NCBI GenBank assembly: GCA_964355335.1
Contig: CAYHDB010000001.1
Span: 23,387-87,386, forward strand
Reading direction: 5' to 3'
From: an uncultured Candidatus Saccharibacteria bacterium
Lineage (GTDB): Bacteria > Patescibacteriota > Minisyncoccia > Phycocordibacterales > SIBU01
Length of the DNA stretch: 64,000 nucleotides
A model generated the notes under the pieces. The model was not told the DNA's origin and did no database searches. It was given only the letters and a program-made list of their open reading frames with translations. How positions within the stretch are numbered: position 1 is the stretch's first letter; every line of letters begins with the position of its first letter. This document shows positions 1,732 through 48,987 of this stretch, piece by piece. The position numbers and the translations under genes were made by a program.

Positions 1732-2169
1732 ATGCGTTATTTGGGTATTGATTATGGGTCAAAGCGGGTAGGGGTGGCGGTTTCAGATGAGGAAGGGAAG
1801 TTCGCCCTGCCTTTATTGGTGTTGAAAAATGATTCAGAGCTTCTCTCCTCATTAAAAAAGATAATCACTGACAAAGTTGTCGGGACCGTTGTCTTGGGGG
1901 AATCAAAGAACTTTAAAGGCGAGGATAATGTTATTATGTCTGATATCCGAAAGTTTAAGGATGTGTTGGAAAAAGAAATTTGTCTATCAGTGTTTCTTGA
2001 GCCGGAGTTTATGACTTCTTCAGGGGCACATCGTATGAACGAATTTGATAAAGAGCAAAGTAGAAAATCCGGTATTCGTTTACGAAAACCTGTGACTCGC
2101 AATGCTATGCTAGATGCGTCTGCTGCAGCGATTATTTTACAAGCATTTTTGGATAAAAATAAATCATGA
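1732..2169 (+). CDS. ruvX: Holliday junction resolvase-like protein RuvX/YqgF
   Basis: MRYLGIDYGSKRVGVAVSD is the classic YqgF N-terminus. Length about 146 aa. Confidence 0.85.
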   Translation: MRYLGIDYGSKRVGVAVSDEEGKFALPLLVLKNDSELLSSLKKIITDKVVGTVVLGESKNFKGEDNVIMSDIRKFKDVLEKEICLSVFLEPEFMTSSGAHRMNEFDKEQSRKSGIRLRKPVTRNAMLDASAAAIILQAFLDKNKS

Positions 2170-2609
2170 TTTCTTTTGACGATTTTAAAAAGGTGGAAAT
2201 AACGGTGGGGAAAATATTTTCCGCCGAAAAAGTGCAGGAGACGGATAAACTTTTAAAGCTCTCGGTGGACTTTGGTGCGAAGCAAAATCCCTCCACGCTT
2301 CAGAAAGCGGTGCTCCCTTTAGAAAAGGGAGAACAGGTAGATGTCACCACCCCTCAAATCCCCTCCTTAGAAAAGGAGGGGAGGCAAGAAGAAAGAGATG
2401 TTCGCCAGATTGTTTCAGGAATCTCCGCGTACTTCCCAGACCCTGCTGTTTTGGTGGGGAAGAAGTGTATGTTTGTCACAAATCTTGAACCACGTACAAT
2501 TCGCGGACTTGAGAGTAATGGTATGCTTTTTGCTGTATCGACTGAAGACGGTAAGTTTTCGTTGCTTGAACCTCAGGGAGATATTCCGGAGGGAACGAAA
2601 GCTAAGTAA
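2166..2609 (+). CDS. Stand-alone tRNA-binding domain protein (CsaA/Trbp111-like, resembling the MetRS C-terminal domain)
   Basis: KVEITVGKI...MFVTNLEPRTIRGLESNGMLFAV...GDIPEGTKA is an OB-fold tRNA-binding-domain signature. The ATGA overlap with ruvX suggests an operon. Confidence 0.7.
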   Translation: MISFDDFKKVEITVGKIFSAEKVQETDKLLKLSVDFGAKQNPSTLQKAVLPLEKGEQVDVTTPQIPSLEKEGRQEERDVRQIVSGISAYFPDPAVLVGKKCMFVTNLEPRTIRGLESNGMLFAVSTEDGKFSLLEPQGDIPEGTKAK

Positions 2610-17734: not shown

Positions 17735-17940
17735 AACAATGAAAAAAAATAAATCAAAAGTTAGGGTTTTAAATAACGAAAATCACCATAACCAGCTCTT
17801 GTGGAAAGAGATTGGTTGTGTTTGAGACGGCTCAATTTTTTATACACACATTCAATCCCTTTCCAAAAGGGATTTTTCTTTTTGGGAAATGAAATCGATT
17901 GGTTCATTGACAAAAAAATAACAAACGAAAGGGTGCACAT

Positions 17941-35627: not shown

Positions 35628-37346
35628 ATGGTTACAGATGAAATAAAAAAATTAATACAGGAAAGTTTACACAAATTAGGCATATCTGTTGCCGAGGTTT
35701 CCTTGGAGCATCCTGATGAGATTTCTCACGGGGATTTTTCTACCAATGTAGCACTTGTTTATTCGAAGCAACTCGGAATGAATCCAAGAAAAATTGCGGA
35801 CGAGGTTGTAAAGTTTTTCGAGCAAAATAAACCTGAAGGAGTTGAAAAGGTGGAAGTTGCCGGAGCCGGTTTCATTAATTTTTTTCTTGCCAGCGGATTC
35901 TTTAAGAAAAATGTTGGAGAAGTTCTAAGTCAGGCAGAGGATTTCGGTAAAAACAAGGTTTTGGCTGGGAAAAAAGTGATGGTGGAGTATACTGACCCAA
36001 ATGCTTTTAAGCCTTTTCACATCGGTCATTTGATGGCGAATTCCATAGGAGAATCTGTTTCGAGGTTGGTTGAATTTTCAGGGGCCGGAATTATAAGAAT
36101 GTGTTATCCGAGCGATATAGGACTTCATATTGCTAAGTCTGTATGGGGTTGCTTAAAAAATAAGAAAGAATTTCCAAAAAATTCAGACACATTGATAACG
36201 AAGACGGCTTTTTTAGGGGGAGCTTATGTTGAAGGTACTAGTGCTTACGAAAGCGATCCAGAGGCCAAAATTGCAATAGACAAAATTAACAAAGAGCTTT
36301 TTGAGAAAACTAACCCGGAAGTTTTGAAAGTTTACGATCAAGGCAGATCATGGAGTTTGGAGCATTTCGAAGAGCTATACAAGAGGTTGGGGACAAAATT
36401 TGATGAGTATATTTATGAAAGTGAGGCCGGTCCTGCCGGACTCAAAATAGTACATGATTTTTTAGGCCAAGGAGTTTTTGAAAAAAGCGACGGTGCTATT
36501 GTTTACAGGGGAGATAAACACGGTCTTCATACCAGGGTTTTTGTGAATTCTTTGGGATTTCCTACATATGAAACTAAGGAAATTGGTCTTAACACAAGAA
36601 AATTTAAGGAACACAAACTTGATTTGTCGATAATCGTAACTGCTAACGAACAAAATGAATATTTTAAGGTGGTTTTGTCAGCAATTAGGAATATGTATCC
36701 GGAAATTGCCGAGAAAACTAAACACCTGTCGCACGGAATGCTGCGGCTTGCGTCAGGAAAAATGTCCTCCCGCACTGGCAACGTCATTACGGGAGAGTCG
36801 CTTATTTCCGCGGTGGAGGCAATGGTTCATAAGAAATTGGAAGAAAGGGAGCTCGAAACAAAGGAGAAAAATAAAATCGCGGAGTTGGTTGCGGTAGGTG
36901 CCATTAAATATTCAATTCTCAAACAGGCGATAGGAAGCGATATTATTTATGATTTTGATAAATCGATTTCGTTTGAAGGAGATTCGGGTCCATACCTGCA
37001 GTATTCATATGTCAGAGCGATGTCCGTACTGAAAAAGGCCGAGTCAATGAAGATTAAACCTCATGTAGGGAAGGAGGCTGATACTTTGGAAATATCTTTA
37101 TTTGAACGTTTGCTTACTCGTTTTCCCGAAACCGTCGAGAGAGCTGGGGTGGAGTATGCTCCGCATTATATCGCCACCTACCTTACCGAATTGGCCAGTG
37201 CGTTCAACGGATATTATGCCCAAAATCAGATTGCCAACGCAGAGGATAAGACTTCATCATACAAGGTGGCACTGACAACTGCTTTTGCCACGACAATGAA
37301 GAATGGATTGTGGTTACTGGGTATACAAGTACCCGAGCATATGTAG
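35628..37346 (+). CDS. argS: arginine--tRNA ligase
   Basis: VEYTDPNAFKPFHIGHLMANSIGES (HIGH) and the class I ArgRS anticodon-binding C-terminus (YLQYSYVRA). Confidence 0.9.
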   Translation: MVTDEIKKLIQESLHKLGISVAEVSLEHPDEISHGDFSTNVALVYSKQLGMNPRKIADEVVKFFEQNKPEGVEKVEVAGAGFINFFLASGFFKKNVGEVLSQAEDFGKNKVLAGKKVMVEYTDPNAFKPFHIGHLMANSIGESVSRLVEFSGAGIIRMCYPSDIGLHIAKSVWGCLKNKKEFPKNSDTLITKTAFLGGAYVEGTSAYESDPEAKIAIDKINKELFEKTNPEVLKVYDQGRSWSLEHFEELYKRLGTKFDEYIYESEAGPAGLKIVHDFLGQGVFEKSDGAIVYRGDKHGLHTRVFVNSLGFPTYETKEIGLNTRKFKEHKLDLSIIVTANEQNEYFKVVLSAIRNMYPEIAEKTKHLSHGMLRLASGKMSSRTGNVITGESLISAVEAMVHKKLEERELETKEKNKIAELVAVGAIKYSILKQAIGSDIIYDFDKSISFEGDSGPYLQYSYVRAMSVLKKAESMKIKPHVGKEADTLEISLFERLLTRFPETVERAGVEYAPHYIATYLTELASAFNGYYAQNQIANAEDKTSSYKVALTTAFATTMKNGLWLLGIQVPEHM

Positions 37347-38669: not shown

Positions 38670-38735
38670 TTTGTTGACTTATATTGTGCTGGGTGTAGTT
38701 TGTAGGGAGTTTAACCAAGAAAGGGAAAAATAACT

Positions 38736-39095
38736 GTGAACATTCTGGATGTCCTGTCGATGACGAACCCCTCTGTCACCTCGAAAGAGTTGTACAAAGG
38801 GCTTATGAATATGTCGGAAGGTGAGTATCGCGAAACATATACAAGGATGCTGGCTCAGGCAAGGAAGTTTATCGAAAGTGACGACGGTGACTTTTCTGCT
38901 CGGTTGGATTCTGGTGATGCCGCCATCTACGCATCATTTTGTGGCAAGCTTTCCGAAGCTTTTGACTTGCTTCAAGCCTATAAAGGCATGGCGAAAGGGG
39001 TACGGGCCAGTTTACTGTCCGAAGTTATGACGTGGTGTCAGTTCCTGAGCCAGGCCCGAGGCTTAGTTGAAGTAATGCTTACTTCTCGGACTTAA
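38736..39095 (+). CDS. hypothetical protein
   Basis: A 119-aa ORF. Confidence 0.35.
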   Translation: MNILDVLSMTNPSVTSKELYKGLMNMSEGEYRETYTRMLAQARKFIESDDGDFSARLDSGDAAIYASFCGKLSEAFDLLQAYKGMAKGVRASLLSEVMTWCQFLSQARGLVEVMLTSRT

Positions 39096-39148
39096 TTTCA
39101 AAAATGCTTCAACGATGCTAGAATAGCCATATTCTAGCTTTTTTATAT

Positions 39149-42100
39149 ATGTCCGAAGAAAATATCAAGAAAAGTCCAATAGCCGATAGGGAAGAGTTGA
39201 TTTTGAAGACCTGGCAGGATAACCAGATTTTCAAAAAAACTCTCGAAAAGCCGTCACCAAAAGGCGAGTTTGTTTTTTACGAAGGTCCTCCCACGGCGAA
39301 CGGAAAACCCGGGATTCATCACCTCGAAGCACGAGCTTTCAAAGATGCTATCCCTCGATACAAGACGATGCAGGGTTTCCATGTACGCAGAAAAGGTGGA
39401 TGGGATACACACGGATTGCCTGTGGAACTGGCGGTGGAAAAAGAGCTTGGATTGAAATCAAAAAAAGACATTGAAGATTATGGTGTCGCGAAGTTTAACC
39501 AGAAATGTAAGGAAAGTGTTTGGACGTACGTGGATTTATGGAAAAAGTTCACGGAACGTATTGGTTTTTGGGTTGATTTGAACAATCCTTACGTCACCTA
39601 TTCGGCAAACTATGTCGAATCATTGTGGTCAATCCTTAAACGTGCCGACGAGAAGAAACTTTTGTATAAGGATTACAAGGTTGTGCCATGGTGTCCGAGA
39701 TGTGGAACAGCGCTTTCAAGTCACGAATTGGCACAGGGGTATGAGACAGTTAAAGATTTATCTTTAACTGTCAGATTCAGGATTCAGGATTCAAGATTCA
39801 CGAAGGGGGAGAATACCTATCTATTGGCGTGGACTACCACGCCGTGGACGTTACCTGGGAATGTCGGGCTTGCTGTTGGAGCAAAAATTAAATATGTAAA
39901 AGTGAAAGTGGGGGCGGAGGTTATTATTTTGGCTAAGGAACGCACAGAAAGTGTTTTGAAAGGGAAGGAATATAAAATTCTCGAGGAGTTCACGGGAGAA
40001 AAGCTTGTGGGTTTGGAATACGAGCCTCTTTACACATTTTTGAGAGATAGTTTGACCAAAAATCCCTCCACGAATAAGAATTCGGTGCTCCCTTTAGGAA
40101 AGGGAGAATTAAGAGACGAGGCGGGAAAACTGAAAAATGCGTTTAAAGTCTACGGAGCGGATTTTGTGACCACCACCGACGGTACGGGTATAGTGCATAC
40201 AGCCGTGATGTATGGAACAGACGACTTTGAGTTGGGTACAAAAGTCGGGTTGCCAAAATACCATTTGGTAAATGAAGATGGAACATTCAAGAAAGAAACC
40301 GGATTTTTGTCAGGAAAGTTTGTGAAGGACGAGGAAACGGCTGTCGATATCATCAAGGATTTGGCGCACCGGGGATTGCTTTTTGCCAAGGAAAAATACG
40401 AGCACAGCTATCCTTTCTGTTGGCGCTGTCATACCCCGCTTATCTACTACGCGAGGGATTCATGGTATTTAGCCATGAGCAAGTTGCGTAATGTGCTGGT
40501 CAAGGAAAACAAGAAAATCAATTGGGAGCCTGCTCATATTAAAGACGGGCGTTTTGGAGAATGGCTACGTGAGATAAAGGATTGGGCAATTTCTCGTGAA
40601 CGTTACTGGGGGACACCACTACCTGTGTGGAACTGTGAATCCTGTGGAAAAAAAGAGGTGTTGGGCTCGTATGCCGAAGTCATGTCGCGTACTGGTGGAG
40701 TTCTGACCAAGATTATCCTTGTCCGTCACGGTGAAAGCGAGAAGAATATAAAGAATGTTTTCTCTTGTGTTTTCGAAGGCTATCCTTTGACAAAATTGGG
40801 AGAATCGCAGGCTCGCAATGGAGTGAAGCTTCTCGGAAAGGAAAAGGTGTCTGCAATATACGCCTCGCCTGTCTTTCGCACAAAGCAAACCGCTGGAATA
40901 TACGCGAAGAAGCTGAAGAAAGAAGTGGTGGTGGACAATCGTCTGCGAGAGGTGGACAGTGGTGTTTGGGATGAAAAGCGTTTTGACGATGAGTGGGTGC
41001 TCAAGGAACAGAAAGCATACAAGAATCTTTCGCATGAAGGTTTTTATGTGGCGCCTAGAGGAAGTACGGGAGAAAGCTGGAAGCAAGTGGAGGATAGGGC
41101 AACGGATTTTTTCAAAGAAATTATAAAGAAACATAAGGGGGAGACGGTAGTTATCGTTTCTCACGAAGGACCCTTGGCGTTTTTGATGAGATACATTCAG
41201 GACGTTCCGATTGATGATATGAAAAGTATTTTCAGAAAGGGTTTGGTCAATGGCTTTGCTGTACCGAAGCTTGTATATATCGACAATTCAACGGAGAAGG
41301 AGTTTAATCCTCACCGCCCGAGGATTGATGAAGTAGAGTTCCCTTGTAAGTGTGGAGGAAGAATGAAACGAGTAAAAGAGGTCGTGGATGTATGGTTTGA
41401 TTCCGGCGCGATGCCTTTTGCTCAGGACCACTATCCTTTCGAGAACAAGGCAATTGTTGAAAAGGAAAGATTTCCCGCCGATTATATCTCAGAGGCGATA
41501 GACCAGACTCGCGGGTGGTTCTACACACTTCATGCGATAGGGAATATCTTAGGTAAAGGATTTGCCTACAAAAATGTTATTTGTCTTGGCCATATTTTGG
41601 ATGCACAGGGTAAGAAGATGTCGAAGTCTATCGGAAATGTCGTGGATCCATGGCAGATGATAAACAAGTACGGCTCTGACGCTCTTCGCCTTTGGATGTA
41701 CTCGGTGAACCAGCCAGGGGAATCGAAGAACTTTGACGAGAAGACCGTGGACGAGATTGTAAAGAAATATTTCAATCTTGCCTCGAACGTTCTCGCTTTC
41801 TACCAGCTGTATTCTTCTTCTGCGGTCAATGGTCAAATGTCACATGTCAAAAGCTCTCATGTTCTGGACATTTGGATAATTGCTAGATTAAATCAGCTTA
41901 TTGGTGAGGTGACGAGCGGGCTGGATAATTACAAATTGCTTGAACCGACTCGCGCAATCAGAGATTTTATCGCTGATCTTTCACAGTGGTATCTTCGACG
42001 TTCACGCGAGCGAATTAAAAATGGTGGGCAAGATGGAGAAGAGGCTCTGGCTACATTACGGTTTGTGCTTTGTGAGTTATCCAAACTTATGGCTCCTATG

Positions 42101-42697
42101 GCGCCATTCTTTGCCGAATTTTTATACAAGGAGATTGGGGGAGAAAAAGAAAGTGTCCATTTGGAAGAATGGCCGGAGGTAAAAGTAAAAACTAAAAGCG
42201 AAAAACTTAAAATATTGGAAGAAATGGAAGAGGTGAGGAGAGTAGTGTCGCTTGCTTTGGAGCAACGTGCTAAGGCCAACATAAAAGTTCGTCAGCCCCT
42301 TTCTTCTCTTAAGCTTAAATCTAAAATCATAAATCTTAAATCCGGAGTGTCTGATTTGATAAAAGATGAAGTAAATGTAAAAGAAATAATTTTTGATTCA
42401 ACAATTCAGAATGAAGTGGAATTAGACACGACTATTACTCCGGAATTAAAGGAGGAGGGGGATGTTCGAGAGCTTGTCCGGGCAATTCAGGATCTGCGCA
42501 AAACTTCGGGATTTAACGCAATCGATGTTGTTAATCTTACTGTCGAGACTGATGAGAAAGGAAAAAAGTTTATAGAGAAGTATCTGAATGAATTGATGAA
42601 GGCTACACAACTGAAGAAAATTGCTCACGGCCCATCTCTAGATGGAGGGGAAGTCTTGATGGATGGATTTTCTCTAAAAATCTCGGTTTCGAAATAG
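39149..42697 (+). CDS. ileS: Isoleucine--tRNA ligase with an embedded histidine-phosphatase (PGAM-like) domain
   Basis: IleRS motifs: PPTANGKPGIHH (HIGH), WCPRCGTAL, KKMSKSIGN (KMSKS), and zinc-knuckle halves WNCESCG / CKCGG..VVDVWFDSG. Between the halves, at about nt 40690-41310, lies RHGESEKN...SAIYASPVFRTKQTA...VVIVSHEGPLAFLM, a branch-1 histidine-phosphatase signature. Confidence 0.85.
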   Translation: MSEENIKKSPIADREELILKTWQDNQIFKKTLEKPSPKGEFVFYEGPPTANGKPGIHHLEARAFKDAIPRYKTMQGFHVRRKGGWDTHGLPVELAVEKELGLKSKKDIEDYGVAKFNQKCKESVWTYVDLWKKFTERIGFWVDLNNPYVTYSANYVESLWSILKRADEKKLLYKDYKVVPWCPRCGTALSSHELAQGYETVKDLSLTVRFRIQDSRFTKGENTYLLAWTTTPWTLPGNVGLAVGAKIKYVKVKVGAEVIILAKERTESVLKGKEYKILEEFTGEKLVGLEYEPLYTFLRDSLTKNPSTNKNSVLPLGKGELRDEAGKLKNAFKVYGADFVTTTDGTGIVHTAVMYGTDDFELGTKVGLPKYHLVNEDGTFKKETGFLSGKFVKDEETAVDIIKDLAHRGLLFAKEKYEHSYPFCWRCHTPLIYYARDSWYLAMSKLRNVLVKENKKINWEPAHIKDGRFGEWLREIKDWAISRERYWGTPLPVWNCESCGKKEVLGSYAEVMSRTGGVLTKIILVRHGESEKNIKNVFSCVFEGYPLTKLGESQARNGVKLLGKEKVSAIYASPVFRTKQTAGIYAKKLKKEVVVDNRLREVDSGVWDEKRFDDEWVLKEQKAYKNLSHEGFYVAPRGSTGESWKQVEDRATDFFKEIIKKHKGETVVIVSHEGPLAFLMRYIQDVPIDDMKSIFRKGLVNGFAVPKLVYIDNSTEKEFNPHRPRIDEVEFPCKCGGRMKRVKEVVDVWFDSGAMPFAQDHYPFENKAIVEKERFPADYISEAIDQTRGWFYTLHAIGNILGKGFAYKNVICLGHILDAQGKKMSKSIGNVVDPWQMINKYGSDALRLWMYSVNQPGESKNFDEKTVDEIVKKYFNLASNVLAFYQLYSSSAVNGQMSHVKSSHVLDIWIIARLNQLIGEVTSGLDNYKLLEPTRAIRDFIADLSQWYLRRSRERIKNGGQDGEEALATLRFVLCELSKLMAPMAPFFAEFLYKEIGGEKESVHLEEWPEVKVKTKSEKLKILEEMEEVRRVVSLALEQRAKANIKVRQPLSSLKLKSKIINLKSGVSDLIKDEVNVKEIIFDSTIQNEVELDTTITPELKEEGDVRELVRAIQDLRKTSGFNAIDVVNLTVETDEKGKKFIEKYLNELMKATQLKKIAHGPSLDGGEVLMDGFSLKISVSK

Positions 42698-42964
42698 TTT
42701 CCTCGACAAATAGTGGTGGGGATAAGCGGTTGCGCAAAAACTTGCAAGTTTTTTACGTGGGTGTATATTTTGAAATGGTGTGTTTGGAGCTCTTTGTCAG
42801 GATGTTGAAAAATGGCTGCAGGTTTGGGTTTGGAGGCTTTCTCTTGTTCCAAACCTGCAGCTAGTCCGGGTTGGCTGTTGGACTTCGTCTCCCGACCGAG
42901 TGGTGGGGAATACAGGAGGGCAGAAACCCAAAACAACACCCACCTATGGTGGGAGAAAGGTACA

Positions 42965-43450
42965 ATGAACAAAATCAAATGGCGCCTCAGTGGCGCGTTT
43001 GTTGCGATCGCCTTTTTGGCGCTCGCGTTCGGCCTGGAGTCGCCGGCGCTCGCGGATCCGGGAGGGGGTCAGACAACTCTGACTGAAAATAGCCTGCTTA
43101 TTCCGGCGCCTCCGCCCCTGGCCAAGATCGTCCCGGCCACCGCGTTCAACATTGTCTCGCCCCCTACAGCCTTGGTGGCGGACAACAGCAACGCAAATAT
43201 CAACTCGAACGTGTCGCCTAGTTTTGCGAGCGTTAACTCCAAAGACGCCGAAAATATCAAGGCAACCTCATCTCCGGCCGCGATTCTGGAGAATGCTAAC
43301 ACTGCGTCGCGAAACGGGCCGACCCTGAATTCCGTCGGCATAAATAGTCTTGCGACCGTCAATACCTTGCTACCGGCACCCACGAAAGGAGTTTGCTCCG
43401 GCACGGAACTTGCCACGGCCAGCAATTTGGGCGCGAATAAAAGTGTATAA
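42965..43450 (+). CDS. secreted low-complexity (Ala/Asn/Ser/Thr/Pro-rich) protein
   Basis: Signal peptide MNKIKWRLSGAFVAIAFLALAFGLESPALA. A good SD (gagaaagg) precedes the ATG at 42965. Locally more GC-rich than the flanks. Confidence 0.5.
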   Translation: MNKIKWRLSGAFVAIAFLALAFGLESPALADPGGGQTTLTENSLLIPAPPPLAKIVPATAFNIVSPPTALVADNSNANINSNVSPSFASVNSKDAENIKATSSPAAILENANTASRNGPTLNSVGINSLATVNTLLPAPTKGVCSGTELATASNLGANKSV

Positions 43451-43654
43451 GTCGCCTTTTCGGAGAACGACGCACGGGTGAGCGTGGAATCACCTTTTCA
43501 GCATCCTGAGTACACCGGTTTTTTGTGTATGTAGAATTAACCTTACGTTTTTCTCGCCCCTCCGTGTTTGCTTACGCGGAGGGGTTCAGTGTTTCAATAT
43601 TTTTAGTATACTGTAATTTCGGCAATCTTAATTCCTCCTTTGAAAAAGGAGGTG

Positions 43655-43765
43655 CCGTCCACAGGTGCACATCATCTGCCGATGTGCCCGAGTCATCGAG
43701 GCGGAGGATTTCAAAATCCCTCGTCTCATAAGAATGAGCCACTCCCTTTTGAAAAGGGAGAATAA
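43655..43765. repeat. Modular three-hairpin element, family 4, copy B
   Basis: ggcggaggatttcaaaatccctc + gtctcataagaatgagcc + actcccttttgaaaagggagaa. Confidence 0.7.
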
Positions 43766-43780
43766 TAGATTTGTATTTTT

Positions 43781-44338
43781 ATGACCAAAAGAGTATTTCT
43801 TATCCATGGTTGGGATGGAAAACCCGATAACCATTGGTTTCCTTGGCTTACCTGGGAGCTAAAGGCTCGTGGTTTTGAGGTGCATTCATTGACCATGCCT
43901 CATGCGGACACACCAAAGGTTTCAGAATGGATTGCTGAAATGAAAAATATTGTCGGGCACCCAAACAAAGACACATTTTTTGTCGGTCATTCTCTTGGCT
44001 GTATCGCAATTGTTCGATATCTCGCACAACTACCTAAGACTGCTCGAGTGGGCGGGTGCGTGTTTGTAGCAGGATTTTCAAGTGATTTGGGTATCCCTGA
44101 GATTTCTGAATTTGTTTCTTTGCCTTTCGATATGGAAAAAGTCAAAAGTCACTGCTCGAAGTTTGTGAATATATTTTCTGATAATGATGAGTATGTTCCG
44201 ATGGTGAAAAGTTTGGAGTTTCAAAAAGCCCTTGGCGCGAAAGGTACTCTCGAAAGAGGAAAGGGGCATTTTACGAAAAGTCAGGGAGTCGACGCTTTAC
44301 CTTCAGTTTTTAAAGTCCTTATGGATATGGGCAGTTAA
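43781..44338 (+). CDS. alpha/beta-hydrolase (YdeN/RBBP9-like serine hydrolase)
   Basis: VFLIHGW...FFVGHSLGC (GxSxG)... Confidence 0.75.
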   Translation: MTKRVFLIHGWDGKPDNHWFPWLTWELKARGFEVHSLTMPHADTPKVSEWIAEMKNIVGHPNKDTFFVGHSLGCIAIVRYLAQLPKTARVGGCVFVAGFSSDLGIPEISEFVSLPFDMEKVKSHCSKFVNIFSDNDEYVPMVKSLEFQKALGAKGTLERGKGHFTKSQGVDALPSVFKVLMDMGS

Positions 44339-47583: not shown

Positions 47584-48987
47584 ATGAATAAATCAAAATC
47601 CGAAAGTAGCGACATTATGGAAAAGTTGGTTTCGCTCTGTAAGCGACGCGGGTTTGTCTATCAAGGTTCCGAAATTTATGGTGGACTCGCGGGTCTCTAC
47701 GATTTTGGACCGTATGGCGTTGAACTTTTAAATAATATAAAGGCTTCTTGGTGGAAAGAAAATGTACACAAGAGGGAAAATTATGTTGGACTTGATTCCG
47801 CAATGTTTAAAGACCCTCGAGTTTGGGAAGCATCGGGGCACACCAAAGGTTTTTCCGATCCACTTTCCGAGTGTAGGAAGTGCAATACCAGAATTAGAGT
47901 TGATAAAGAACTCGAAAAGATTGGCGTCGTTGCGGATGAGAAGATGACGGAAGTCGAACTCAACACTCTTTTCACAGACAACAAATCCAAAATTAAATGC
48001 ATAAAATGCGGAAGTAAAGATTTTACGCCTGTTCGAGCTTTCAACCTCCTCGTTAAATCTAATCTGGGCGATTTTACCAATGCGGGAGAAAGTCCTGTGT
48101 ATTTGCCGGGTGAAGCTTGCCAGGGAATATATTTGAATTATAAAAATATAATCGATACGACACGGGTGAAGATACCCTTCGGCGTCGCACAGATTGGCAA
48201 GGCGTTTAGAAACGAAATATCACCACGGAATTTTCTTTTTCGAGTTAGGGAATTTGAACAGGCCGATACACAGTTTTTTGTTCGACCTAACGAAAATAAA
48301 GACGCGTACGAAAATATAAAAAAAGAGCGCTGGGCTTGGTATCTCAGTTTGGGGATACGGGAACAGAATCTAAAATGGAAGCAACATGAGAATTTAGTTT
48401 TTTATGCTTCTGATGCGTGGGATATCCTCTATAATTTCCCAACATATGGCTTCGATGAAGTTGAAGGAGTTCACGATCGTACCAACTATGATTTAACTCA
48501 GCATATGAAATATTCTGGTGTAGATTTGAATTATACCGATCCTCAAACGGGGGAGAAATTTATTCCGTGGATTTTGGAAACTTCAATGGGTCTTGGAAGG
48601 GTGTTTTTGGCGGTAATGTCAGATGCTTATTTTGAAGACGAAATTGGTGGTGAGACTCGAGTTGTATTGAAACTTGCAAAGCATCTGGCTCCAGTAAAGG
48701 TGGCGGTCTTTCCGCTTCTCAAAAACAAACCTCATCTCGTAGAAAAGGCGAGGGAGGTCTACAAAATGTTGAAGAAAGAAATGACTTGTGAATTTGACGA
48801 CAACGGTAACATCGGCAAACGCTATCGCCGTCAGGATGAAATTGGCACCCCGTATTGCGTGACGGTTGATTTTGACACCGTGGAAAAAGACCAATCGGTC
48901 ACCGTCCGCGACCGCGATACGGGAAAGCAGGATCGTGTTGCTCTACAGGAGCTTGCGGAATTTCTAAAAACCAGATTAATCGCGTGA
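47584..48987 (+). CDS. glyQS: glycine--tRNA ligase (dimeric class II type)
   Basis: MEKLVSLCKRRGFVYQGSEIYGGLAGLYDFGPYG and class II motifs. The start may be the internal Met at 47617. Confidence 0.9.
   Translation: MNKSKSESSDIMEKLVSLCKRRGFVYQGSEIYGGLAGLYDFGPYGVELLNNIKASWWKENVHKRENYVGLDSAMFKDPRVWEASGHTKGFSDPLSECRKCNTRIRVDKELEKIGVVADEKMTEVELNTLFTDNKSKIKCIKCGSKDFTPVRAFNLLVKSNLGDFTNAGESPVYLPGEACQGIYLNYKNIIDTTRVKIPFGVAQIGKAFRNEISPRNFLFRVREFEQADTQFFVRPNENKDAYENIKKERWAWYLSLGIREQNLKWKQHENLVFYASDAWDILYNFPTYGFDEVEGVHDRTNYDLTQHMKYSGVDLNYTDPQTGEKFIPWILETSMGLGRVFLAVMSDAYFEDEIGGETRVVLKLAKHLAPVKVAVFPLLKNKPHLVEKAREVYKMLKKEMTCEFDDNGNIGKRYRRQDEIGTPYCVTVDFDTVEKDQSVTVRDRDTGKQDRVALQELAEFLKTRLIA

Follow-up and report, generated by a model that had tools for sequence, protein, structure and literature searches.

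Isoleucyl-tRNA synthetase (IleRS) already holds one enzyme within another. In connective peptide 1 (CP1), a loop of the Rossmann fold accommodates an entire hydrolytic domain, which all IleRS, ValRS and LeuRS share and which acts on what the enzyme itself has made. Few enzymes are as conserved as the aminoacyl-tRNA synthetases, and new catalytic domains in the bacterial catalytic core are rare. Histidine phosphatases of the His_Phos_1 family (PF00300) are also known as partners of a second enzyme, as in 6-phosphofructo-2-kinase/fructose-2,6-bisphosphatase, where the two are fused end to end. The "zinc knuckle" of IleRS is the CP3 subdomain, a peripheral connective peptide that connects CP2 with the latter half of the Rossmann fold, and its zinc motif has been given for the Thermus thermophilus enzyme (PMC7191050). 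Here, a 64-kb stretch of DNA from an uncultured Candidatus Saccharibacteria bacterium is described (the window; 64,000 nucleotides of GenBank contig CAYHDB010000001.1, assembly GCA_964355335.1, positions 23,387 to 87,386 of the forward strand), in which the ileS gene encodes a type-2 IleRS with a branch-1 histidine phosphatase nested inside CP3. This architecture is a real trait, widely and vertically distributed across the candidate phyla radiation (CPR). With it, an essential synthetase bears a second, apparently active enzyme in hundreds of related uncultured bacteria, which cover a very large section of the bacterial tree.

The initial annotation had taken the gene for an IleRS, and the predicted protein of 1182 amino acids (aa) scores 886.7 bits against the ileS equivalog model TIGR00392 (cut-off 621.4) in a scan of NCBIfam, with KMSKS, CP1 and the anticodon-binding domain all found. 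Pfam domains follow one another in the order tRNA-synt_1 in two stretches, His_Phos_1, Anticodon_1 and DUF5915. The best Protein Data Bank (PDB) matches of the open reading frame (ORF) are IleRS2 8c8w and T. thermophilus 1ile, and a full-length AlphaFold2 (AF2) model of the IleRS (predicted local distance difference test, pLDDT, 90.1; predicted template modelling score, pTM, 0.83) reaches a template modelling score, TM(target), of 0.90 to 1ILE and 0.78-0.79 to 8C8V/8C8W in Foldseek. The gene and its parts are as follows.

39149..42697, + strand: ileS, type-2 isoleucyl-tRNA synthetase, a single ORF including the stop codon, 1182 aa
39311..39322, + strand: class I signature in the non-canonical GXHH form (G55-I-H-H58), read from the sequence
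40625..40699, + strand: N-terminal half of CP3, with the zinc pair C496-x-x-C499 and the LGSYAEV helix (8c8w alignment)
40700..41272, + strand: nested branch-1 histidine phosphatase, aa 518-708 (PF00300 match, 8c8w alignment, AF2 model)
41273..41383, + strand: C-terminal half of CP3, with the HRPxIDEV segment and the zinc pair C733-x-C735 (8c8w alignment)
41615..41629, + strand: KMSKS loop (K823-S827), from the sequence; invariant or near-invariant in the homologue alignment
41867..42694, + strand: anticodon-binding domain, then the type-2 C-terminal domains (DUF5915); PF08264 at aa 907-1052, PF19302 at aa 1090-1182

Both class I signature motifs (HXGH and KMSKS) are present, the first as a GIHH variant. 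The GXHH form is functional in IleRS2 and confers mupirocin hyper-resistance (PMC10485003); the best PDB match, 8c8w, is a GVHH mutant, and HXGH as well as G/AXHH signatures occur among the insert-bearing genome loci. The CP1 editing domain, recognised by WTTTPWT (aa 228-234) and GTGIVHTAVMYGTDD (aa 345-359), which are invariant blocks in the homologue alignment, is accompanied by the anticodon-binding domain and the type-2 C-terminal domains. By ORF sizes, there is no second IleRS in the window. The MupA/MupB exception model is missed by a wide margin (778-798 bits, cut-off 1900), and the likeness to MupA/MupB, judged from sequence, is one of shared type-2 ancestry only. The NCBIfam model ileS_w_GNAT (NF040702) is likewise missed (311 bits, cut-off 1999), and this IleRS has no GNAT Pfam match.

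Residues 504-710 face only residues 467-481 of the 8c8w chain, a net insertion of about 190 aa. Read along the protein, the motifs are WNCESCG (aa 494-500), RHGES (526-530), ASPVFRTKQTA (572-582), VSHEG (670-674), NPHRPRIDEVEF (720-731), CKCGGRMKRV (733-742) and VVDVWFDSG (745-753). The initial annotation had quoted RHGES, ASP..R..QTA, VSHEG and both zinc-knuckle halves, each of which lies at the place it gave, and had proposed an in-frame domain insertion between the knuckle halves of a complete IleRS, on which Pfam, NCBIfam and the 8c8w alignment agree. It had placed the insert at about 40690-41310; the domain boundaries are now set at 40700-41272. The full-length model gives the element order of CP3 as strands 493-496 and 502-504, helix 508-515, the phosphatase, helix 725-728, and strands 730-732 and 738-741; thus, the phosphatase lies between two CP3 helices. 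The zinc cysteines are kept in most of 133 aligned full-length homologues (C496 in 118, C499 in 120, C733 in 119 and C735 in 118), and H722 and D727 are near-invariant in the same set. However, the first cysteine pair is absent from several insert-bearing genome loci, and the insert is therefore independent of the zinc site. No domain occupies this CP3 position in any solved IleRS, as judged from PDB sequence matches and Foldseek matches.

An assembly chimera, genes joined by a frameshift, or an intein-like or homing insertion would offer a different origin for such a gene, and DUF559 domains inside the IleRS of a few relatives, together with a small palindromic repeat in frame in the CP1 loop of ileS, speak for it. 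Against it, the reading frame of ORF 39149..42697 passes through the insert without a break. The guanine-cytosine (GC) content of the insert (0.43-0.49) is that of the rest of the gene, and His_Phos_1 is the sole Pfam match between the CP3 halves, where neither a Hint nor an endonuclease domain appears. The insert can be aligned over its full length with free-standing phosphatases. A query spanning the junction recovered at least 25 distinct proteins with both PF00133 and PF00300, at 31-51% identity, and PF00300 was present in all of the 120 best full-length matches (55-100% identity, 1090-1257 aa), which include named Taylorbacteria, Nomurabacteria, Paceibacterota and Parcubacteria. A scan of one genome per species yielded 22 loci, and in 22/22 the phosphatase lay within a long IleRS ORF between PLPVW and WFDS. 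The titles of these loci include Paceibacteria, Minisyncoccia, Yanofskybacteria, Spechtbacterales, Peregrinibacteria/Peribacteria and some metagenome-assembled genomes (MAGs) labelled Saccharibacteria; organism labels here are MAG titles, and some (Gammaproteobacteria, Sedimentisphaerales, possibly Saccharibacteria) may reflect mis-binning. The closest relative, a Taylorbacteria MAG at 85-87% identity, has an identical gene order around ileS, and most members of a second set of 120 Gracilibacteria/Peregrinibacteria relatives carry the insert.

In all, the independent assemblies that share the architecture number well over 150, with identities that span 25-100%, and a frameshift or chimera is therefore rejected; the separate gene that a frameshift would have revealed, named by the initial annotation as the outcome that would overturn its reading, was not found in this continuous and recurrent ORF. 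A recent foreign or selfish insertion (the selfish one had been among its options) is also rejected on the native GC content, the lack of intein or endonuclease motifs and a ratio of nonsynonymous to synonymous substitution (dN/dS) of 0.055, which reflects strong purifying selection. An artefact or selfish element has practically no chance of being the explanation. As to lineage specificity, a point the initial annotation had raised, alignment with relatives shows a CPR-wide trait.

The identification of the insert as a branch-1 histidine phosphatase, first made from its motifs, is borne out by a PF00300 match at E=1.6e-38 (132.8 bits, cut-off 21.7) over aa 522-693, covering profile positions 1-168 of 194. 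The active site of the superfamily (the His of the RHG motif, two Arg, the second His and an acidic donor) is present in full, as R526, H527 (nucleophile), N533, R577, E601 (proton donor), E642, R650 and H672. Each of these residues, including E642, is kept in 132-133 of the 133 homologues. In 324 embedded copies, R526, H527, N533, R577, E601, R650 and H672 are kept in 98-100%, a range that includes the catalytic His and its partner His, whose conservation the initial annotation had left as a question. The pattern RHNREERH recurs in essentially all embedded copies examined, at every insertion site. Over long distances the insert retains 25-30% identity where the whole protein retains 56-60%. 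Measured against the syntenic relative, the insert has a dN/dS of 0.055 and the IleRS body one of 0.066; dS is near saturation (about 1.3-1.4), but both values come from one and the same gene pair. Purifying selection on the insert is as strong as on the synthetase body. The embedded phosphatase is probably catalytically active, judging by its residues and its model.

A module without turnover could instead regulate IleRS by sensing a ligand, by mediating dimerisation or by standing in structurally for the CP3 helices. Dimerisation is common among histidine phosphatases, the host position is a variable structural subdomain, and tandem copies occur both embedded and free-standing. The free-standing examples are proteins of 405-450 aa (P0249, P0270, P0282 and similar), relatives of the insert with two tandem His_Phos_1 domains, both catalytically complete, which mirror the tandem embedded arrangement. 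However, the full catalytic set, including the proton-donor Glu, stays near-invariant while the rest of the domain drifts, and this Glu is not needed for binding alone. A non-catalytic role is therefore highly improbable.

When the insert by itself served as query in an exhaustive search, the long host proteins among the 150 best representatives were all IleRS, some of them with two or four phosphatase copies. Insertion sites were assigned by direct reading of the flanks; the MAFFT alignment superposed homologous phosphatase copies. Three sites were distinguished.

Site A: inside CP3; example, the IleRS of this window
Site B: after WF(D/E)SG..HYPF and before FPAxFIAEGxDQTRGWF; examples, the IleRS proteins P0265, P0295 and P0370
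Site C: past the helix that follows KMSKS, before the anticodon-binding domain begins; examples, P0265 and P0245

Site C corresponds to the low-confidence loop 889-904 of this IleRS, and in P0265 the CxxC...CxxC knuckle is intact and uninterrupted. Among 120 relatives of P0265, the phosphatase is at site C only in 44 and at site A only in 40; the remaining states are B (5), BC (4), AC (3), ABC (2), AB (1), partly unassigned (?C, ?? or ?; 8) and none (13). The named relatives are Gracilibacteria, Peregrinibacteria and Peribacteria, on which grounds an assignment of P0265 outside the CPR, made from its neighbours (POR, DAHP synthase and an SLH protein), was dropped. Tandem site-A copies mark two Peregrinibacteria/Peribacteria loci. 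In a neighbour-joining (NJ) tree of the IleRS body, site state is clade-structured; the C-dominant clade contains the mixed states, and a few members without an insert are nested within. The best relatives of the extra copies are usually site-A copies of other IleRSs, at 35-43% identity, which is consistent with intragenic duplication.

Other enzymes are found in the same loops. GNAT acetyltransferases are present in about 16 of the 120 relatives of P0265, usually together with His_Phos, which fits the NCBIfam family ileS_w_GNAT, and P-loop kinases of the AAA_33/AAA_18/Zeta_toxin type are present in some. DUF559 (restriction-endonuclease-like) domains occur in the IleRS of some relatives, one of them inside CP1. 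P0448 carries a Ser_hydrolase domain (PF06821) at site B (aa 562-734) in addition to His_Phos at site C. P0458 has no histidine phosphatase, and holds at site B two tandem HAD-superfamily phosphatase domains with an intact DxDGV in each. These domain-bearing IleRSs (P0398, P0409, P0410, P0458, P0459, P0475 and others) reach 1859 aa, and the IleRS of the Gracilibacteria/Peregrinibacteria type seems, from its domain matches, to be a general platform for domain accretion. One further candidate insert type was set aside: P0107 (508 aa), an IleRS core with the C-terminal half of Epimerase_2 (UDP-GlcNAc 2-epimerase), has overlapping matches and is probably chimeric or mis-called.

A broader reading of this accretion is that the CPR IleRS is a multi-enzyme hub, whose embedded modules (histidine or HAD phosphatase, P-loop kinase, GNAT and serine esterase) have as targets either inhibitors directed at IleRS or the termini of tRNA-Ile or Ile-tRNA. 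It would imply a new layer of tRNA repair, detoxification or quality control within a synthetase, with this phosphatase making the 3' end chargeable again or breaking down a phosphorylated compound that poisons IleRS. We regard it as quite unlikely.

Whether the module folds as an independent lobe had been raised in the initial annotation, and the insert modelled alone by AF2 does so with pLDDT 96.2 and pTM 0.92. In Foldseek, the fold of the superfamily is recovered with probability 1.00 and a TM of 0.78 to PhoE 1h2e, GpgP 4qih and PspA 4ij6. The top structural matches are about 200 aa long and comprise PhoE/YhfR, glucosyl-3-phosphoglycerate phosphatase, PspA, a riboflavin-pathway phosphatase and CobC, while true mutases rank lower and have a poor root-mean-square deviation; protein phosphatases of the SixA/Sts type are not among the top Foldseek matches of the insert. 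At the sub-family level, the best NCBIfam match is the archaeal-type dPGM (dPGM_arch; NF038349, 100.8 bits against a cut-off of 225), followed by the bifunctional RNase H/acid phosphatase PRK07238 at 97.5 bits. The other dPGM models (TIGR01258, 46 against 81.7; NF010713, 41.7 against 305), PspA (NF045917, 85 against 350), CobC (TIGR03162, 88.2 against 162.9) and GpmB also score below cut-off. Because all of these phosphatase equivalog cut-offs are missed, no specific substrate can be assigned.

The 324 embedded copies were compared with free-standing relatives, and no position is conserved specifically in the embedded ones. Positions conserved in at least 75% of embedded copies hold the majority residue in free-standing relatives as well (42-100%; lowest P574, 42%). 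The embedded copies have a median net charge of -2 and an isoelectric point (pI) of about 6.3, like free-standing relatives, and the pI of 9.4 of this particular insert is not a family feature. Matches of about 200 aa that appear to be free were not relied on as the nearest free-standing relatives, given that several are on contigs shorter than 1.1 kb and may be IleRS fragments. Since no embedded-specific conserved position was found and the charge is like that of free-standing copies, the phosphatase is best described as an autonomous lobe.

These properties bear on a role in tRNA healing or detoxification, in which the domain would remove a 3'- or 2'-phosphate, a cyclic phosphate or a pyrophosphate from the acceptor end of tRNA-Ile or from cleaved tRNA, in some relatives jointly with embedded P-loop kinase, GNAT or esterase modules. 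The host binds tRNA and is the only host seen among the best 150 representatives; P-loop kinases of the AAA_33/Zeta type accompany His_Phos in some relatives, and HAD domains occur in one. T4 polynucleotide kinase-phosphatase pairs a kinase with a HAD domain. The second-best sub-family match, RNase H/acid phosphatase, points the same way. However, the fold is a capped one for small substrates and lacks open phosphatases of the SixA/Sts type among its top matches, the embedded copies have no specific conserved surface, and their neutral to slightly acidic rather than basic charge argues against a general RNA-binding role. Furthermore, contact of CP3 with tRNA is not described in the cited IleRS literature (PMC7191050), and the restriction to IleRS is left without explanation. 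We consider this role very unlikely.

The fold class, which is that of metabolic small-molecule phosphatases, also bears on a hitch-hiking explanation: the cell would have no other copy of some central-metabolism phosphatase or mutase that it needs (e.g., a missing phosphoglycerate mutase), and the insert would be held as a frozen accident in a permissive loop, unconnected with isoleucine charging. The dPGM_arch match, the lack of embedded-specific residues and of a conserved interface, and the unrelated enzymes in the same loops of relatives agree with it, and the domain scan of the window found no other His_Phos gene. In addition, phosphoglycerate mutase is apparently absent from several shallow Parcubacteria clades (PMC7304191), a gap that such an insert might fill. 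On the other side, the dPGM, PspA and CobC cut-offs are all widely missed, neither the RR motif nor the K100 equivalent, both dPGM-type substrate residues, can be recognised in the sequence, which is PhoE-like (ExxxGxxxGK), and relocation among three sites, up to four copies and a HAD substitute are hard to explain as accident alone. Hitch-hiking is thus unlikely, with a small but real chance of being correct.

The explanation that we judge probable is that of a housekeeping type-2 IleRS of a CPR bacterium (Paceibacteria, Taylorbacteria-like) with an autonomous small-molecule phosphatase tethered to it, i.e., two enzymes on one chain. The IleRS body, with its GXHH, KMSKS, CP1 and anticodon-binding elements kept, is predicted to charge tRNA-Ile as usual. 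The phosphatase lobe, of the PhoE/PspA/CobC fold class and on short linkers, would hydrolyse a phosphomonoester via a phospho-His527 intermediate, with R526, N533, R577 and H672 holding the phosphate and E601 serving as proton donor. Its substrate is more plausibly a small phosphoester than tRNA or protein. We infer that the physical link to IleRS has itself been selected, because the hosts seen are IleRS only, related lineages keep at least one phosphatase module while relocating it among three loops, up to four copies occur, and in one case tandem HAD phosphatases take its place. A structurally coupled hand-off between the phosphatase and synthetase active sites is not favoured; the working guess is that a general nucleotide or sugar-phosphate phosphatase would be co-localised or co-expressed with IleRS.

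Several points weigh against the tethered-phosphatase explanation. The unrelated GNAT, P-loop kinase, Ser_hydrolase and DUF559 domains occupy the same loops, which may simply tolerate insertions, in which case the link with IleRS is a historical accident. The insert drifts faster than the IleRS body, as the identities given above attest (25-30% against 56-60%). Finally, NJ trees of both the body and the phosphatase copies are star-like and poorly rooted, and do not separate a single origin from multiple origins.

The neighbourhood of ileS is one of housekeeping genes, with ArgRS upstream (35628-37346), a class II synthetase (tRNA-synt_2b and HGTP_anticodon) downstream (47584-48987), and RecO and CofD. 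A Ser_hydrolase (PF06821) gene lies directly downstream of ileS (43781-44338), as it does in close relatives and at one distant locus (L023, 11677-12234; L018, 6497-7051). That PF06821 occurs both beside ileS and embedded at site B of P0448 may, by Rosetta-stone reasoning, hint that this esterase family and IleRS are functionally linked. Between the ileS stop and the Ser_hydrolase gene there is a stretch of about 900 bp of GC-rich DNA (42750-43650; 52-59% against about 43%) that is absent from the syntenic relative L023 and may be a lineage-specific insertion. It contains ORF 42812..43450 (212 aa, no Pfam match), in which an internal Met gives a signal-peptide-like start (MNKIKWRLSGAFVAIAFLALAFG). 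Upstream of ileS, about 420 bp (38670-39148) with a 119-aa ORF (38736..39095, no Pfam match) also have no counterpart in the relative, where a 435-aa ORF and ileS are separated by only 58 bp.

A two-hairpin repeat element of about 51-55 nucleotides, CAAAATCCCTC..CACGnnTnAGAAnnCGGTG..CTCCCTTTnnnAAAGGGAG, is present at 40059-40109, 43713-43763 and 2291-2345. Its hairpin core is also found at 17855, 51253 and 61349, which gives 6 in the window against 0.05 expected by chance. The copy at 40059-40109 is in frame within ileS. The CP1 loop that contains it (aa ~304-321) is modelled with low confidence, and it is precisely there that ileS has 12 and 6 extra codons relative to the 85%-identical relative. 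The long copy at 2291-2345 lies within ORF 2166..2609. From its sequence and placement, the repeat looks like a miniature palindromic element able to insert into coding sequence.

The initial annotation knew of no established phosphatase insertion at this position of an aminoacyl-tRNA synthetase, and none was found in the searchable literature: the full texts gave no description of an IleRS with a histidine phosphatase, phosphoglycerate mutase or His_Phos_1 domain or, for Gracilibacteria, a GNAT domain, or of synthetase insertions in the CPR, and recent work on IleRS structure and evolution (including PMC10485003) does not mention a phosphatase insert. The sequences are already public, their domain matches are precomputed, and the proteins are abundant under automatic IleRS annotation; the novelty lies in recognising and describing the architecture. 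The alternative sites, multiple copies and companion domains across the CPR add to the finding in a single gene. A functional tether would point to a need tied to isoleucine charging, or to a metabolic role, that has so far been overlooked in organisms with minimal genomes. If the insert hitch-hikes, an essential gene has served, strikingly, as a safe harbour for other enzymes, and per-protein annotation would miss enzymes hidden in synthetases when CPR metabolism is reconstructed, e.g., a "missing" phosphoglycerate mutase.

Compared with known systems, the host is closest to the IleRS2 enzymes of T. thermophilus (1ILE) and Priestia megaterium (8C8U-8C8W), with which it shares domain order, CP1, the CP3 CxxC...CxC zinc ligands, KMSKS, the anticodon-binding domain and the type-2 C-terminus (sequence E-value about 1e-240, TM(target) 0.78-0.90). 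However, those enzymes bridge the CP3 halves by about 13-40 residues, whereas in the present IleRS a second enzyme, made up of about 190 extra residues, takes this place. The insert shares its fold with PhoE/YhfR (1H2E, 1EBB), PspA (4IJ5/4IJ6), Rv2419c (4QIH) and CobC (6NRU, 6E4B) at probability 1.0 and TM 0.72-0.79; these are each about 200 aa long, have identical catalytic residues and, in the case of PspA and PhoE, align with the insert end to end. In contrast to the insert, which is nested in another enzyme, they are free-standing. A curated precedent for an IleRS with an extra enzymatic domain is NF040702 (ileS_w_GNAT), from which this IleRS differs in having no GNAT; no curated family was found for a His_Phos insertion in IleRS. 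In PRK07238, His_Phos_1 is fused to an unrelated catalytic domain end to end, whereas here it is nested, with an aminoacyl-tRNA synthetase as host and a loop of the host's catalytic core as its place. The nesting itself resembles that of CP1, from which the phosphatase differs in its limitation to one lineage and its unrelated fold.

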